Shown in pieces: positions 1 to 54,757 of a DNA stretch of 64,000 nt. Source of the DNA: Podarcis gaigeae (taxonomy: Eukaryota). The notes beneath the pieces were generated by a model. It had not been told where the DNA came from and searched no databases. It saw nothing but the letters and a program-made list of their open reading frames with translations. The DNA is taken from the NCBI GenBank assembly GCA_964106915.2, contig OZ066919.1; one strand, 5' to 3'. The translations under genes and the position numbers were made by a program. How positions within the stretch are numbered: the first letter of the stretch is position 1; every line of letters starts with the position of its first letter.

Positions 1-1
1 C

Positions 2-3
<2 letters not shown>

Positions 4-45
<42 letters not shown>

Positions 46-925
46 TATTATTTATTATTTGTACCCCGCCCATCTGGCTGGGTTTCCCCAGCCACTCTGG
101 GCGCCTTCCAACAAAGATAAAAGATACACTAAAATGTCACATATTAAAAACTTCCCTGAACAGGGCTGCCTTCAGATGTCTTCTGAATGTCAGGTAGATG
201 TTTATCGCTTTGACATCTGATGGGAGGGTGTTCCACAGGGTGGGCGCCACTACCGAGAAGGCCCTCTGCCTGGTTCCCTGTAACTTGGCCTCTCGCAGTG
301 AGGGAACCGCCAGAAGGCCCTCGGAGCTGGACCTCAGTGTCCGGGCAGAACGATGGGGGAGGAGACGCTCCTTCAGGTATACTGGACCGAGGCCGTTTAG
401 GGCTTTAAAGGTCAGCACCAACACTTTGAATTGTGCTCGGAAACGTACTGGGAGCCAATGTAGGTCTTTCAAGACCGGTGTTATATGGTCTCGGCGGCTG
501 CTCCCAGTCACCAGTCTAGCTGCCGCATTCTGGATTAGTTGTAGTTTCCGGGTCACCTTCAAAGGTAGCCCCACGTAGAGCGCATTGCAGTAGTCCAAGC
601 GGGAGATAACCAGAGCATGTACCACTCTGGCGAGACAGTCTGCAGGCAGATAGGGTCTCAGCCTGCGTACCAGATGGAGCTGGTAAACAGCTGCCCTGGA
701 CACAGATTTGATCTGTGCCTCCATGGACAGCTGTGAGTCCAAAATGACTCCCAGGCTGCGCACCTGGTCCTTCAGGGGCAGAGTTACCCCATTCAGGACC
801 AGGGAATCCTCCACACCTGCCCGCCTCCTGTCCCCCAAAAACAGTACTTCTGTCTTGTCAGGATTCAACCTCAATCTGTTAGCTGCCATCCATCCTCCAA
901 CCGCTTCCAGACACTCACACAGGAC
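4..925 (-). mobile_element. 5'-truncated young L2-clade LINE (C-terminal part of ORF2, 3' stem-loop, TTA/TAA microsatellite tail) in an EIF2D intron
   Basis: Uninterrupted ORF 137..889 with L2-type motifs LNPDKTE, SRLDYCNAL, LQLIQNAAARL, HITPVLKDLHWLP, RAFSVVAPTLWN; CpGs retained; 3' hairpin ggctggg-tttc-cccagcc near 76-93; (TAA)n at 4-46. Confidence 0.9.
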
Positions 926-1338: not shown

Positions 1339-1532
1339 CAGGGGTTGCCAAACCTTTTGGGCCCATAGGCACATTTGCAAAGTGGAAAAGCTTCTGTGGC
1401 ACCACAGCTAAGCTCACACAGCAACCTTCTCTCTTGGGTACAGTAGAATGCTTCCTTCAAGCCTAATGTCAGCAGGCGAAGGATGTGGGTGCCAGGGAAG
1501 GCGTCTGTGGGCATATATGTTGGCAACTCCTG
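1339..1532. mobile_element. hAT-like MITE remnant
   Basis: Terminal inverted repeats caggggttgccaa ... ttggcaactcctg. Confidence 0.55.
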
Positions 1533-3134
1533 GCATAACCGCTTTGACCACTGCAGGCCTAATTAGGACTCTTGTGCCTTTTAAGACGTGCACCATATCA
1601 GGGAAACAATTAGCAAGCAATGCTTTCATTTTCTCTCGACTGCTGCAACAGGGAAGGGCACACCTTTTTGAAACCTCTCCTTGATGCTCACTTGTTGAAG
1701 GCACTGAAGAGTTTTTGGCAATCCCAACCACTTTCCTTCCGTAATTGTTTATCGTATCCAGAGCAACACAGTTCATTACCACTATAGTCACCATTGCCTC
1801 TGGAAGGGCCCACCCACTTGACCTGTGGCTGCATTGTCAGCAGACCTGTAGATACTGAAGTGATAGGAATGGGCAAGGATGCAGAGGAATGGCAAAGGAA
1901 AGGGGAGGAGAATGGGGAGGTGCTTGATGGGACTGGTGGGGCTTACAGGCCCGTCCTGCTCTGTCCCCTTCCTACCCCACACACAAGTCCCACTCCAACT
2001 CCTCTTAAAAATTTGGACTGGCTGTGCTTACCTGTCCTCTCTGCCTGCCGCTGCCCATGCTCGCTTTGCCAGCCTCCCTCCAACTTCCACCAGAAGTGGT
2101 GACGCTCTGGTGGTAATGAAGATGCACTGCAGCCCGTCGTCTCCCTTCTCCTTGGGGACCATGTCTGGGCTCCGCTCCTTGCTGCTGGGCTGCTGGGCTT
2201 CGTTCCCTCGGGGGGGTTCCACACTGTCTCCTCCCCCGCCCATCTATGATGTCACATACACATAGCATTGTGAAGCTCGCATTTTACAGTATCTTTTACA
2301 AGGTCTCATTTGTGTGCCCCCTTGGTAGATTGGACGGCGAGGTTCCTTCTGTTATCTGCTGGAACAGGCAGGGCTGTGCCTTTCCTCTGTCACAATGGGC
2401 ACTTGTGATGTCGAGAAGGCTTGGCAGAGTGTGTGGGGGCGGGTGGGCTTTAGTTTAGGTCTACATAGGAACTTAGCCCAAAGAGACACCTAAGACTTTG
2501 GATCATTTCTCCACGCTTTCTCTCCTCCAGGGATTGGCTTCTTTGGAGGCCAGGTCTAGGGTGCTCTGTTTGGCTTGCTTTAGAATTATTCAGAGAACTT
2601 TCAGAAGGACTGCCATTGTCCCTGGCCAGTATCAGATTGACCTGGGTACGTGCAATGCAATTCCTTGGGGTGGGGAACCTCAGGTCCAGGGGGCCAGATG
2701 CAGCCGCCCACATCTGTCTGTTTAACCCTTGGAATGCTCCCCAAGTCACATCCTCCACTGGTCATGATTCACACTATTTCTTCTTTCCTGGCTGGAATGC
2801 CTCTTGCTTATCTGGATGGAGGATTGAGATGGGTGCACAAGCGTATGTAGCCTACTCTACAAAGGTACAATTTCCACCCACTTTTGCCTCAGACCCCACC
2901 TACCCCTGGGAAGTTGCCTTTGGAAGAAACTGTGGCCCACAAGCTGAAAAACAGTTTCCAACTGCCTTTCCTTTTGCACAATGTACCTGGCACTCCTATT
3001 TCCTTGCATGGCTCCTCTGTGCATATTAGAACACATGCAGAGATACTCACTCTAAGCTATCAGTTATCTTCCTTTGCTGCTAATAAAGTTGGGGTTGTGC
3101 GCTAATTCTCTTCCCTGGGTCTTCCGTGGCTTTA

Positions 3135-13566: not shown

Positions 13567-13719
13567 TTATCCAGGCTTCCCATTTGCTTCTTTCAAGGCC
13601 TCATGCAGTCTTTGTTTAAACCTGTCATACTTTTTCTGCACTTGCTGGATTTTCTCTTTTTCTTCCCTTTCTAGTATCACCAGGAAATTCTGTAGCTCTG
13701 GAATAGAGAAGTCATCCCA
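13567..13719 (-). CDS. RASSF5: RASSF5 last coding exon, SARAH domain (WDDFSIPELQNFLVILEREEKEKIQQVQKKYDRFKQRLHEALKEANGKPG*)
   Basis: cacag| acceptor, TAA at 13569-13567; human WDAFSIPELQNFLTILEKEEQDKIQQVQKKYDKFRQKLEEALRESQGKPG*. Confidence 0.96.
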   Translation of the reverse strand, partial: WDDFSIPELQNFLVILEREEKEKIQQVQKKYDRFKQRLHEALKEANGKPG

Positions 13720-16979: not shown

Positions 16980-17277
16980 CTTGACCATCTTTCTGCATCT
17001 GCTTGAAAAGTGCAAATTTCTGTGGGTTGTCCACCACCATAAATTTCTTCAGAAGTCCTTGGATCACCTCACTCACGGTGGTGCTGCTGCTGATGTGCAA
17101 CTGTTTGATGGCATCCAGTGGCAGGTAGAAGGATGTTCTCTTCTCTGTCATGTTGGCCATGTTGACCTCCTTGAGGGCATCGTAGATGGACTGCGGCCTG
17201 ATCCCTGCTGGCACCGTCACAGGCCGGCGAAGTTTCAGGTGAACTTTGATGAAGCCTGTGTAAGTGCCGTCATCATT
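16980..17277 (-). CDS. RASSF5: RASSF5 coding exon, Ras-association domain (NDDGTYTGFIKVHLKLRRPVTVPAGIRPQSIYDA...KFMVVDNPQKFALFKQMQKDGQ)
   Basis: atcag| and |gtgaga, 298 bp; near-identical to the recalled human RA domain. Confidence 0.97.
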
Positions 17278-19934: not shown

Positions 19935-20054
19935 CAGCTTCATCAGCAAGCAGTTGTTGACTTTTGAGTTGTAAATGTCAATCTTCTCCTTCAACTCTTG
20001 GACAGTAGGAGCTTTAGGTTTTTCTTCTTTTTCTTCCACTGGTTTTGTTACATT
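19935..20054 (-). CDS. RASSF5: RASSF5 first shared coding exon (NVTKPVEEKEEKPKAPTVQELKEKIDIYNSKVNNCLLMKL)
   Basis: ttctag| and |gtatgt, 120 bp, phase 0/0; human NVCKPVEETQRPPTLQEIKQKIDSYNTREKNCLGMKL. Confidence 0.94.
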
Positions 20055-31679: not shown

Positions 31680-32690
31680 TATGTACAATGTATCAAAACA
31701 CATTCTAATAAATAAACATATTCCCCTCACTCCGCTGCACACATTAATTTTAGCCCTTCTAATCATTAGAAGCTTTTGCACATCCTTAATAAATTGTAAA
31801 CCCAACCTAAAACAGCAAGAATTCATTTTGATTCTAGACAACACTACAGCAGATTACATACAGAAAACAAGAGGCATAGGGATGTCAAGAAGATGTCACC
31901 TTGTTATTAAAGGGGGGGGTTCATGCAGGTTTTAACCAATACATGCCCAAGATCAATTTAAAAATGCTTGCAAGATTGCTTTGCCTCAGAATACAAGGCA
32001 GTAACTGACCAGTTAACAGACAAATCCATTTCCTTTCTCAGACATTTTAAATTTAGCACTACATTTTGCCACTGAACAAATATGAGTTTTAGCAGTCCTA
32101 GCACTTCCCAGAGGGTCATTCAGCAAGTCACCTTGCATGTGGTGTGGAATTAATTTGTTCTTATTGCACCTCCGTGCTTAGTGACAGATGGTTCAACTGT
32201 TCCATTGCCAGCAAACAATGTAAATATACACAGAAAAGAATTGACCTGTGTTGGAAACTGATCTGTCACCCAGCAAGGATGTCACCATAATTCTGAGTTG
32301 GAGCATCAGGGAGCTGCCAACCAAGCATCATCCTGCAAATAGCCCATGGTAAGAAATAAAAGAAAATAACAGGTATACATGAGGGGGGGGGGGATCTGTT
32401 TGTTCACAGCAATTCAGGCTCTAAGGTGCATTAGAAAATAATCTCCCTTGGTTTGCAATCAGAGACAGAATTTAAGTTGCCATTTCCATTAAGCATTTAA
32501 GAGAGCTTGCAATTGGACATATTCAAGATTATTGCAAAGGGTGCATTTCTTGTCATTATCCTGGAGGCAGCTTCTGTGGCCCAATAAGTACTTTAAATGA
32601 GAGTTTAATGAGAGAACTTTTCCAGTCCAAGGGTGCTTCCACACCCATTGTTCATTCACTATTTTATGAGGCACCTACCCAACTTTAAGT

Positions 32691-33045
32691 GGGACGCGGG
32701 TGGTGCTGTGGTGTAAACCACTGAGCCTAGGACTTGCTGATCAAAAGGTCAGTGGTTCGAATCCCCGCAATGGGGTGAGCTCCCTTTGCTCGGTCCCTGC
32801 TCCTGCCCACCTAGCAGTTCAAAAACACATCAAAGTACAAGTAGATAAATAGGTACCACTTCGGTGGGAAGGTAAAAGGCGTTTCCGTGTGCTGCTCTGG
32901 TATTGCCAGAAGCAGCTTAGTCATGTTGGCCATATGACCCAGAAAACTGTCTGCGGACAAAAGTCGGCTCCCTTGGCCAGTAAAGTGAGATGAGTGCCGC
33001 AACCCCAGAGTCATTCGCGACTAGACTTAACTGTCAGGGGTCCTT
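32691..33045 (+). mobile_element. Full-length Sauria SINE with 13-bp TSD
   Basis: gggacgcgggtgg head, B box ggttcgaatccc, caggggtccttt end; tacccaactttaa at 32676-32688 and 33046-33058. Confidence 0.9.
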
Positions 33046-33321
33046 TACCCAACTTTAATTTGTTAAAATATATTTATTCAGACTATTTTCACCCTACCCT
33101 TATGATGTATACAGAAGATAAAAATTCAAAAATAAAATCAAAAGCCAATAATACTTAAACAGCAGTGACAATTCTCCAGAGCCTTGGTATATTTATCTAT
33201 TTATTGCCAGACTATAAAAAGTAATCTTGACTCCCCATGCCAATCATCAGATGTGTGGGTCACTCTGAGCAGCCTTTGCAGGTGTGTTCAAAAACTCTGA
33301 TCATGAAAACAAAGAAGCATC

Positions 33322-34132
33322 TTCCTTTCCCCCTGCGCACAAAGGTAGCCTTCAACTGCAGGCTGATTTACTGTTTTCTGTTATTGGGGACTGTGCTTGA
33401 TTTTGTTTGTGAGAACTTCCAGGTCACCCACACCCAACCCTGCTCCTTCCAAACAATTAATGTTATTCTTTTATTTCTTGTGGTCTGGATATCGATCTGC
33501 AGAGCCACTTTGTAGTGGTCAAATCTTCGGCAAGCTTGCAATCCTGATGGTAGAAATTGAGCATCCAAAACAGATTCAATTCAAATTTGTTTTGTTTTTG
33601 TACTCTTGTAACTTGTACACATATCCTAATCCAGGGACAGCTTGTAAAAAATGTTTTCGGTTTTGTTTCACTTGGTAGTCTGTCACCAATGGCTGAAGGT
33701 TTTTTTCTTCCTTAGGCAATATATTTAAATGCTTGTGTACTGGCGAACTGTAGTTCTGTTTCTTTTATCACACTTCTCGTTTTTTGCCTTTATGGCTCTA
33801 AGTTGCTGTTTTCTTAAACTTTCTAGAGACTTGAGCAAACTTTCATTAACACCAAGGGCTGGTATCTCTTGTTCTTCTTCTAAATTGTTCAGAAAGTTAA
33901 GAGAGTTCATCCATCCAAATGTTTATTGAAGATGCAGAAACAGAATGGAGTAACTTTCTTTGGACAGTAAAAATATTTGTGGCGGTATCAGTGAGGTTCT
34001 TCCCTTCCTTGAGCACCAATTTAATGAACTTGTTGGGTTTTTCCAGCTCAGCCTCATGGGCTTGGATCCTTTCCTGGAATCAGGGGGTTTCCCCAGGTAG
34101 CAACTGCTAAACTTCCAGGGCTGCAGCCACAC
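33322..34132 (-). pseudogene. ARHGAP10: Processed pseudogene (retrocopy) of ARHGAP10/GRAF2, BAR domain to start of PH domain
   Basis: Colinear, intronless segments WLQPWKFSSCYL / FQERIQAHEAELEKPNKFIKLVLKEGKNL / NFLNNLEEEQEIPALGVNESLLKSLESLRKQQLRAIK / QVKQNRKHF / YVYKLQE / FYHQDCKLAED / DHYKVALQIDIQTTRN / NKIKHSPQ / EGYLCAQ match recalled human ARHGAP10 residues ~1-278; ATG changed to GTG, plus stops and frameshifts. Confidence 0.88.
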
Positions 34133-35296
34133 GGCTGAGATGGCAGCTACAACAGGGCAAGCTGCACTACACTCTTCATTTCAGCAGCATGCCTGCCTCC
34201 TCCTCCTGATCAGAGTGAGTCCCAGCAGCAGCTCACCAAAGCAAAACAAGGGGCAGAGCAGCCTTTTCAAAGCACACCATGGGACCTGGGCAGCTTTTGT
34301 GCCAAGAAGCACACCAAGGAGGGAATGAGGAAAATGAGGTCGCTGAAGAAATCCACCACCAGCTGGGCAGTCAGTCTGAGCACCCATGAAACTCAGTACA
34401 GTACACACGTACCAGACCTTATGAACCTACTGTACTTTGATCCCCAACAGAAAAAGCGTGCCTGTTTTCATATCACTGTTAAAAGGTACACTGCATTAAT
34501 CCCATCTACTTCCCTAGTCTTTGTGTAGGTACTTGGGTCATTGTCACATACACAGTATGTTGTTGGCTGGGTCCTCTCTCCTCATGCACACATTAAAAAC
34601 CTGAGGGCTCCTTCTTTTAGCATCTTGGTGCAAATGGAACTGATCATAGTATTACTCCTTTTTAGTAGATACTGACAAAGAGATTACCAAGACAATGTTT
34701 GTTAACAGCTCATTTCATCCTGTCACTCTGAAAACAGGAAGTGTGGCAATCTTGTAAGGGTAACAGCTTCTGCTTTTAATGTAACCTAAAGTGCAGCAAA
34801 AAGCTTGCCTGCGGGTCCCTGAGCAAACACACAAAGAATGAGAAACTACAGAGAGTTGATTTTACTGCTTTCTTAAATGGCAATCCTCCGTTTGATGGAC
34901 TGAGTGTGTACCACACACATGACAAACAGGCCTTCCTTTATGTGGGATACAATGGTCTGGTTTTTACAGTTTAGTTTTGCCTGCGGCTTTTTCCTTTCTT
35001 TTTAATGGGCACAATTTTCATTTACGTTCCCTATCCTGCAATCCTAACGTCTCACCTGCTACCCACCCTGTAATTTCTATAACCCACTTACTGCTGGTTA
35101 AAGTGCCCTATCTTCCTCAACTATATGCAGACAGCTAGTATGGTTGTTTAGTAGTTATAGCTCTGGACATCGATAAAGGAGACGTGGATTCTTTCCCCTA
35201 CAAAACCTAATGGGGGAAAGATGGATGTCAGCCTGACCTCCTTATAGAAGGGAGAGAACAAAAAGCTGAAACACGAAAAAAAAATCTAGGCAGTTT

Positions 35297-54637: not shown

Positions 54638-54757
54638 CTTTGCGGCAAATTTGCTCTGAGCGCTCCTAAATAAGGTGGTCCTGGCTGTGAAAAAACAGTC
54701 CTCCAAGTCTTCATCCAAACTACAGTAGCCACTGCTCATGCTGTTGTCGACCGTCAT
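54638..54757 (-). CDS. RASSF5: RASSF5 isoform C (NORE1B/RAPL) first coding exon (MTVDNSMSSGYCSLDEDLEDCFFTARTTLFRSAQSKFAAK)
   Basis: ATG at 54757, |gtaacg donor in phase 0; human MTVDSSMSSGYCSLDEELEDCFFTAKTTFFRNAQSKHLSK. Confidence 0.96.

Follow-up and report, generated by a model that had tools for sequence, protein, structure and literature searches.

Introduction

Which RNA was copied, and by which enzyme, when a retrocopy retains the 5' part of its parental transcript, lacks the 3' part, and recurs elsewhere in the same genome with the same end? This question is raised by a copy of ARHGAP10 (GRAF2) on contig OZ066919.1 of the lizard Podarcis gaigeae (assembly GCA_964106915.2), within a 64,000-nt stretch which was analysed as a whole and is referred to below as the window. 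Coordinates of all features, including related insertions elsewhere in the genome, are collected in Table 1.

Table 1. Features of the ARHGAP10 retrocopy, its sister insertions and the host gene (plain numbers are window positions; C numbers are genomic contigs; + numbers are positions in the parental intron)
Feature	Position	Strand	Detail or basis
Decayed ARHGAP10 5' UTR copy	34133..34322	-	firm block 34322-34157 = parent -217..-68
Copy of exons 1-8 (BAR domain and first PH residues)	33326..34132	-	alignment; Pfam domain limits
Exon junctions in the copy	near 33977, 33915, 33860, 33788, 33684, 33572, 33482	-	alignment
Copy of intron 8 +1..+255, exon-8 donor unspliced	33063..33325	-	significant to about +200
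AATAAA near the end of homology	33073..33078	-	sequence; aligned to parent ATTAAA at +240
Second AATAAA	starts 33205	-	sequence
Younger SINE at the 3' end of the copy	32676..33058	-	8 relatives, 75-88%, within 160 kb spanning the parental locus
Candidate L2 3' arm plus (AAT)n tail, decayed, beyond the SINE	32645..32675	-	suggestive only
Sister insertion	C1:32975537		intron 8 +79..+323; 202/241 (84%)
Sister insertion	C25:8611816		spliced 7/8 junction, exon 8, intron to +288; 264/346 (76%)
Probable sister insertion	C2:93678856		about +228..+314; score 2219 vs <=2041 in 1228 controls
Intron-13 insertion	C1:579389-581009 (L079:4889-6509)	+	exons 12/13 spliced, then intron 13
Intron-13 insertion	C16:88140228-88139443 (L083)	-	intron 13 only, 195/228
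RASSF5 upstream coding exon	54638..54757	-	ORF, exon reading
RASSF5 next exon downstream of the copy	19935..20054	-	translation and splice sites
RASSF5 RA-domain exon	16980..17277	-	Pfam RA; PDB 3DDC, E 1e-53
RASSF5 last coding exon	13567..13719	-	PDB 4OH8, 4LGD, 2YMY

Parentage and decay of the window copy

A DNA search of the animal's own genome with positions 33300-34300 returned six matches, namely the window itself and five colinear, exon-sized pieces, all within one gene (G000:C19:42.46-42.51 Mb) whose exon 1 is 100% identical to proteins named ARHGAP10 from lizards and a turtle. Exons 1-8 of this parent were mapped, all with AG/GT ends, and spliced together (832 nt) they match the minus strand of window positions 34132-33326, with 595 of 766 aligned bases identical (77.7%; K2P 0.27). 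The parental introns 1-7, which measure 98-32,039 nt, are absent at all seven junctions, where the following 60 nt of the copy score 1397-3537 against the next exon versus 473-912 against the intron start. With the copy on C15 and the intron-bearing parent on C19, the duplication is dispersed. Residues common to copy and parent, and differing from a paralogue, outnumber the reverse class by 50:3, 40:2 and 36:0 for the three paralogues in the same genome, and in a tree the copy falls inside the ARHGAP10 clade, which is split from the paralogues at support 100. The paralogue on C2 is ARHGAP26 (210/215 with a named snake protein); those on C33 and C8 are presumably OPHN1 and ARHGAP42, respectively.

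In the parental frame the copy carries 17 indels, 15 of them frameshifting, together with three stops, and GTG replaces the parental ATG at 34132. Values of dN (0.23) and dS (0.44) against the parent stand at about 1:2, which is the ratio anticipated when drift at replacement sites is confined to the copy, one dead on arrival. Taken alone, and as judged from its sequence, the window copy is an ordinary dead processed pseudogene, probably inert, for which no function is predicted. The preliminary description had proposed an intronless, non-coding, minus-strand retrocopy of ARHGAP10, rather than of ARHGAP26, OPHN1 or ARHGAP42, with a GTG start, stops and frameshifts, and each of these statements is borne out. 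Its start at 34132 stands; its end at 33322 does not, as the copy runs on into intron 8 to about 33063, a read-through which that description overlooked.

Upstream of the coding part, positions 34322-34157 align with the parental 5' UTR, with 95/146 identical and a score of 2453, above the maxima of 1629 among 300 shuffles and 1970 among 157 other chunks. The wider interval 34133-34400, earlier described as CpG-decayed and as possible parental 5' UTR, is indeed depleted (one CpG versus 19 expected); the assignment to the 5' UTR holds for 34322-34157, and homology at 34323-34400 is not significant. As to age, among 21 named ARHGAP10 proteins Y165 of the copy is common only to Podarcis, Zootoca and the amphisbaenian Rhineura, and the copy retains two ancestral glutamines, Q169, which is replaced by V in Podarcis and Zootoca, and Q258, replaced by L in these two and in one gecko. 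These residues would place the insertion after Y165 arose and before the lacertine ancestor, with an older bound that is soft because Y165 is one base change and because teiids and other lacertid subfamilies lie outside the sample. Placement of the copy by tree within squamates is weak (support 61 only). The window insertion may serve as a presence/absence marker for the lacertid stem.

Read-through into intron 8

After exon 8, the next 60 nt of the copy score 2138 against parental intron 8 and 673 against exon 9, and alignment to the intron extends from +3 to +255 (162/243, score 5541; best of 188 control chunks 1962). The intronic part from +102 alone exceeds all 686 controls, and that from +132 all but one of 789; the last 60 nt, from +200, are not significant alone. 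As the alignments read, the exon-8 donor is ignored and some 255 nt of intron 8 are copied, and we regard the presence of an ARHGAP10 retrocopy with intron-8 read-through as very nearly certain. Since the copy continues into intron 8, its template was not a full mRNA, and because the donor is ignored the 5' part is retained and the 3' part lost, the reverse of the usual retrocopy. The template would have been an RNA from which introns 1-7 had been removed, and whose end lay in intron 8 or which was copied from a point inside that intron. Rfam returned no family in 621 nt around the exon-8 donor.

The 3' end of the window copy is blurred by a younger SINE, which we take to be a Sauria SINE, with one arm of a 13-bp direct repeat on either side (33058-33046 and 32688-32676). 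Alignment beyond the SINE recovers no homology to intron 8 or exon 9. The AATAAA near the end of homology scores 947 when placed on the parental hexamer at +240 and 812 at +300, against a null 95th percentile of 919. No poly(A) is visible at this end, and the best target-site duplication (TSD) scores 17, equalled or beaten by 160 of 312 controls; age may erase both features. A degenerate TSD candidate (near 34440 versus 33058) was rejected as no better than chance. By its insertion the copy has placed sense AATAAA hexamers, at 33205 and 33078 on the minus strand, inside the RASSF5 intron.

Sister insertions from introns 8 and 13

A genome search with exon 8 plus the start of intron 8 uncovered further insertions of this type, two firm and one probable, which have staggered 5' ends and one 3' end. 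The C25:8611816 copy reaches about +312 when aligned to the C1:32975537 copy, and the 3' ends of the intron-8 sisters converge at about +312..+323, within an (AAT)n tract; neither the C1:32975537 nor the C25 copies carry AATAAA at the 3' end. The match at C2:93678856 may be an ordinary L2 end instead of an ARHGAP10 copy. Flanks of the sister loci show no relation among themselves or with the window. C25:9679489 shares its flanks with C25:8611816, all remaining flank pairs being at noise, so the two C25 hits represent one insertion that was duplicated as DNA, and are counted once. The C25 copies (8.61 and 9.68 Mb) lie in duplicated DNA beside an exon, presumably of a V2R vomeronasal receptor, and could date duplications in that cluster.

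A second family runs into intron 13. Its C1:579389 member was exposed by a protein search (best 58 of 178 candidates scored), and the C16 member was added by DNA search. Their 5' flanks are unrelated, and the C16 copy is nearer to the parent (85.5%) than to the C1:579389 copy (about 75%). Beyond the parental match a further stretch of about 550 nt is common to the two, finishes at the same point in both, and is missing from today's parent, which has probably lost it. The tail in which both end would, on this basis, have originated in intron 13, the present parent being without it. The C1:579389 copy is interrupted by an insertion of ~690 nt. Of three non-parent protein matches that were fetched, one is this C1:579389 copy and two match RhoGAP exons at about 52-55%; among the 40 DNA matches listed, neither of these two aligns with parental exons. 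In all, ARHGAP10 accounts for at least five, and perhaps six, insertions from two introns (8 and 13).

None of the five sister ends (5/5) bears poly(A), the longest A-run being 3-4 with none above 4, and none of the five has a TSD above chance, which age may explain: the copies are 15-30% diverged, and poly(A) and TSDs decay. Two of the five are 84-85% identical to the parent. A search with the canonical last exon plus 1.5 kb of 3' UTR gave a single match, the parent itself, a negative that is weak because such searches score only the best candidates. In searches for copies with whole introns repeats dominate, and with the best 40 of 2782 and the best 40 of 10443 candidates scored these searches are uninformative.

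LINE tails at the sister ends

The window holds a LINE ORF (137-925) which we take to belong to the L2 clade; Pfam gave no hit on it. Downstream of genomic hits to this ORF the sequence comprises a T-rich segment, a stem whose loop varies, and a repeat rich in A and T. A general tail profile was built from 12 tails that follow the ORF elsewhere (18 were found, and the dominant young family was thinned). It scores 21.7 and 17.6 on the ends of the intron-13 pair, against a best of 2.4 in 1269 reversed chunks. On the intron-8 family it performs poorly, with -1.7 at the C1:32975537 end and no hit on parental +200..+325, on the C2 and C25 copies, or on the window copy; parental intron 8 at +290..+415 scores 5.6. 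A four-copy profile also gave no hit at the 3' end of the window copy, where the SINE occupies the site.

A 29-mer from the C1:32975537 end occurs at four other loci (control 0). Three of these were read, and all have the same 5' arm upstream; the fourth, partly N, was left out. One of the three lies immediately behind the end of a LINE ORF2 of the same orientation. A subfamily profile built from five ends, namely the three 29-mer loci and two local ends, scores 15.2 on each of the C1:32975537 and C2 copies, a value reached by 0 of 1437 control chunks, and for C1:32975537 partly circular because its motif picked three of the five members. This profile misses the parental and C25 versions, and scores -2.4 on the candidate arm beyond the SINE in the window, matched by 63 of 1437 control chunks. 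A single ORF-linked tail (L066), compared pairwise, is significant only for C2, at about the 99th percentile. Taken together, these comparisons indicate that the intron-13 pair ends in an L2 LINE tail, and that the C1 and C2 intron-8 siblings end in the tail of an L2 subfamily.

Two further observations concern parental intron 8. At +320..+360 (L012:3220-3260), after the (AAT)n tract, lies a second short L2-like stem fragment, which matches an L2-type end in L066 at 80% across 36 nt. The copies lack this fragment, which was perhaps inserted later. The parental allele has an apparent micro-inversion of ~8-10 nt (L012:3282-3292) directly before the +300 AATAAA, as judged against the sister copies and the RNA-like contigs.

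A possible short RNA

The copy presents the features of fossil intronic polyadenylation: upstream introns spliced, donor unused, and an end near a poly(A) signal. The RNA form that it records is not among the annotated proteins retrieved. In one study, RNA-like contigs of three runs stop at +321, +334 and +350, with exons 5-8 uncovered there, and a contig of another study covers intron +1..+141 at depth 2.1, versus 21.4 for the spliced form, with only 24 exon bases and no bridging; run X5 holds the spliced form only. Raw reads over the exon 8-9 joint number 3, 5 and 0 in X21, X23 and X24, which is shallow for the short form. These contigs are guessed to be RNA, none of the listed holders being on record as such, are shallow, and come from runs chosen for holding the stretch; uncovered contig parts count as no evidence, and no poly(A) loose end is listed. 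Their agreement with an RNA that ends just past the parental AATAAA at +300 falls short of even a weak hint.

Read-through would encode a BAR-only protein of 341 aa with a 64-aa intronic tail. A conserved, functional tail peptide was considered and rejected, as hits to exon 8 plus the tail cover 34-57% of the query, essentially exon 8, and the tail alone as query gave a single hit without an aligned stretch. A functional BAR-only isoform or retrogene was likewise rejected, for the tail is not conserved, the frame is broken, and identity in the intron (66.7%) is close to the neutral expectation of 66.5% from synonymous sites. GRAF2 BAR-PH fragments act as dominant negatives in cells (excerpt of PMC7199855). 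One Logan record (P0137) is a mammal-type ARHGAP10 fragment in which exons 7 and 8 are spliced and followed by a tail like the genomic read-through in P0139; on this single record, lizards may not be alone in reading through into intron 8. In some annotated Podarcis isoforms of ARHGAP10 (P0096), unlike in P0162, the last exon is translated in a different frame and the SH3 end is lost (L018:5592-5848), probably a matter of annotation.

Mechanism and competing explanations

We favour, with a probability of roughly 55%, copying of ARHGAP10 RNA by an L2 enzyme primed on an intronic L2 tail, over intronic polyadenylation followed by L1 copying and over incidental internal priming. In outline, an ARHGAP10 RNA devoid of introns 1-7 and running on into intron 8 would serve as template; the handle would be the 3' tail of an old L2 element, present in sense orientation at about +245..+315 in intron 8; and an L2 LINE reverse transcriptase would prime on this tail in half-spliced or intron-terminated RNA. 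The template was probably intron-terminated, not nascent, and would have been present in the germ line; the tail also offers AATAAA-like signals. That the window copy once reached the L2 tail is an assumption, and the L2 step is borrowed from its sisters. The read-through, its recurrence, the LINE-tail ends, the lack of poly(A) and TSDs at the sister ends, and the failure to recover copies of the canonical 3' end among the best-scoring candidates all speak for this route. Against it, firm homology of the window copy stops at +255, the 5' arm, without a demonstrable tail, and the general profile misses the element at +245..+315. A decayed remnant might not be bound at all, because L2 recognition in zebrafish is strict for the cognate loop. 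The contig ends, lying past those of the copies and just after the +300 AATAAA, fit polyadenylation too.

Indeed, polyadenylation within the intron could have produced a short BAR-only mRNA that L1 copied by way of its poly(A), the L2 remnant having supplied nothing except the poly(A) signal. This explanation, which we consider possible yet distinctly less probable, predicts a shared 3' end and draws on the only two canonical hexamers in the 1655 nt of intron 8, at +240 and +300, on the AATAAA at 33078 in the window copy, and on the contigs of both studies described above. Retrocopy numbers in non-mammalian chordates, moreover, track LINE1, in an analysis to which the lizard did not belong, and retrocopies outside mammals are attributed mainly to L1 (excerpt of PMC3136929). 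It fits poorly with five of five sister ends lacking poly(A) and TSDs, given that two remain so close to the parent, and with copies that stop within the (AAT)n tract instead of 15-30 nt past a hexamer. The missing AATAAA at the ends of the C1:32975537 and C25 copies, and the failure to recover any full-length 3'-end copy, also count against it, and the contigs it invokes are shallow, selected, and only guessed to be RNA. The L2 route and intronic polyadenylation may both hold in part, if the tail ends the transcript and also binds the enzyme.

Neither a short isoform nor a trans-acting L2 is needed if internal priming took place on a tract rich in A and T in nascent, part-spliced pre-mRNA, whether by L1 or in break repair, such that the L2 identity is incidental. 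The most A-rich 20-mers of intron 8 do lie at +226, +292 and +297, and the missing poly(A) would be accounted for, but 12 A in 20 is a modest content, the ends of both copy families coincide with a LINE tail, and priming by L1 should leave TSDs, of which none is seen; we consider this account unlikely. Still more improbable, to the point of being nearly dismissed, is a longer RNA retaining intron 8 whose copy was later shortened by deletion, or a template switch from L2 RNA. The blurred, SINE-bearing 3' end of the window copy would allow this, but independent insertions have the same end, which largely refutes it, and no homology to intron 8 or exon 9 resumes beyond the SINE; a template switch is unneeded because the tail sequence sits in the parental intron itself.

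Relation to known systems

Under L2 priming, ARHGAP10 would be the passenger of an enzyme with hallmarks of its own: L1 insertions carry poly(A) and TSDs, and L2 insertions start from the 3' simple repeat and have TSDs of 1-9 bp (excerpt of PMC4476161). The copies resemble L1-made processed pseudogenes in being intronless, in their 5'-truncated sisters and in neutral decay (excerpts of PMC5470649 and PMC4476161), and differ from them in that the 3' two-thirds of the mRNA are absent, the intron start is kept, and the sisters are without poly(A) or TSD. They also resemble stringent L2 LINE/SINE pairs, as a non-LINE RNA would move in trans via a LINE 3' end: L2 ORF2 binds its cognate 3' stem-loop, strictly so in zebrafish (excerpt of PMC4176376), and Anolis SINE2 is listed with LINE2 as its partner (excerpt of PMC3747384). 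By contrast with a SINE, what is carried for ARHGAP10 is a spliced transcript of the host, and its tail is a relic within an intron. The U6-L2 and U6-AnolisSINE2 chimeras likewise join a host RNA to a downstream L2-type tail, and also come from a lizard (excerpt of PMC4476161), but in ARHGAP10 the tail lies in the gene's own intron and recurs at one place, and no switch is required.

The parallel with alternative transcripts is also instructive, as the copy preserves an RNA form absent from the annotated proteins retrieved. Shemesh in 2006 and Zhang in 2014 reportedly described retrocopies as fossils of alternative transcripts and intron-containing retrocopies. The ARHGAP10 set departs from such fossils in comprising several independent copies, with two intronic end points, each at a LINE tail.

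More broadly, it is tentatively proposed, at somewhat less than even odds, that in L2-rich squamate genomes old sense L2 3' ends within introns act as handles for repeated reverse transcription of spliced host RNAs by a stringent LINE. If so, there would be a class of tail-less, 3'-incomplete retrocopies which would be undercounted by pipelines that rely on L1 hallmarks or on mRNA 3' ends; one such pipeline demands a junction-spanning alignment from the mRNA 3' end (excerpt of PMC13320880). L2 is held to recognise only its own tail (excerpt of PMC4176376), and the ARHGAP10 set points to a second route of gene duplication in reptiles, which could yield domain-truncated copies (here, BAR only). 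This route of retroposition is little described, and directly testable. A literature search from which subscription journals were largely absent found no paper on an ARHGAP10 retrocopy or on its intronic polyadenylation, or on retrocopies of intronically polyadenylated RNAs; titles and abstract openings, covering few subscription journals, contained none that concerns the locus or treats L2 tails in introns as handles.

Host gene and remainder of the window

Five RASSF5 exons were read in the window, all on the minus strand and two of them backed by PDB and Pfam matches, and the copy lies in the intron between 54638 and 20054. Its earlier placement within a RASSF5 intron, in the same sense as the gene, is thereby confirmed, and from this position the copy is predicted to be carried in RASSF5 pre-mRNA. 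The exon at 54638..54757 we take to be the first exon of the short RASSF5 isoform, and that at 19935..20054 is also assumed to belong to RASSF5. At the edge of the window, positions 1-925 (minus strand) hold a young LINE fragment with the open, 262-codon end of an ORF and a full tail; its protein is 93.5% identical to that of a copy within intron 1 of ARHGAP10. Nearby, at 1414-1836 (minus strand), lies an exon-like ORF fragment of 140 codons, without a Pfam hit, which presumably represents an EIF2D-like exon of the gene next to RASSF5.
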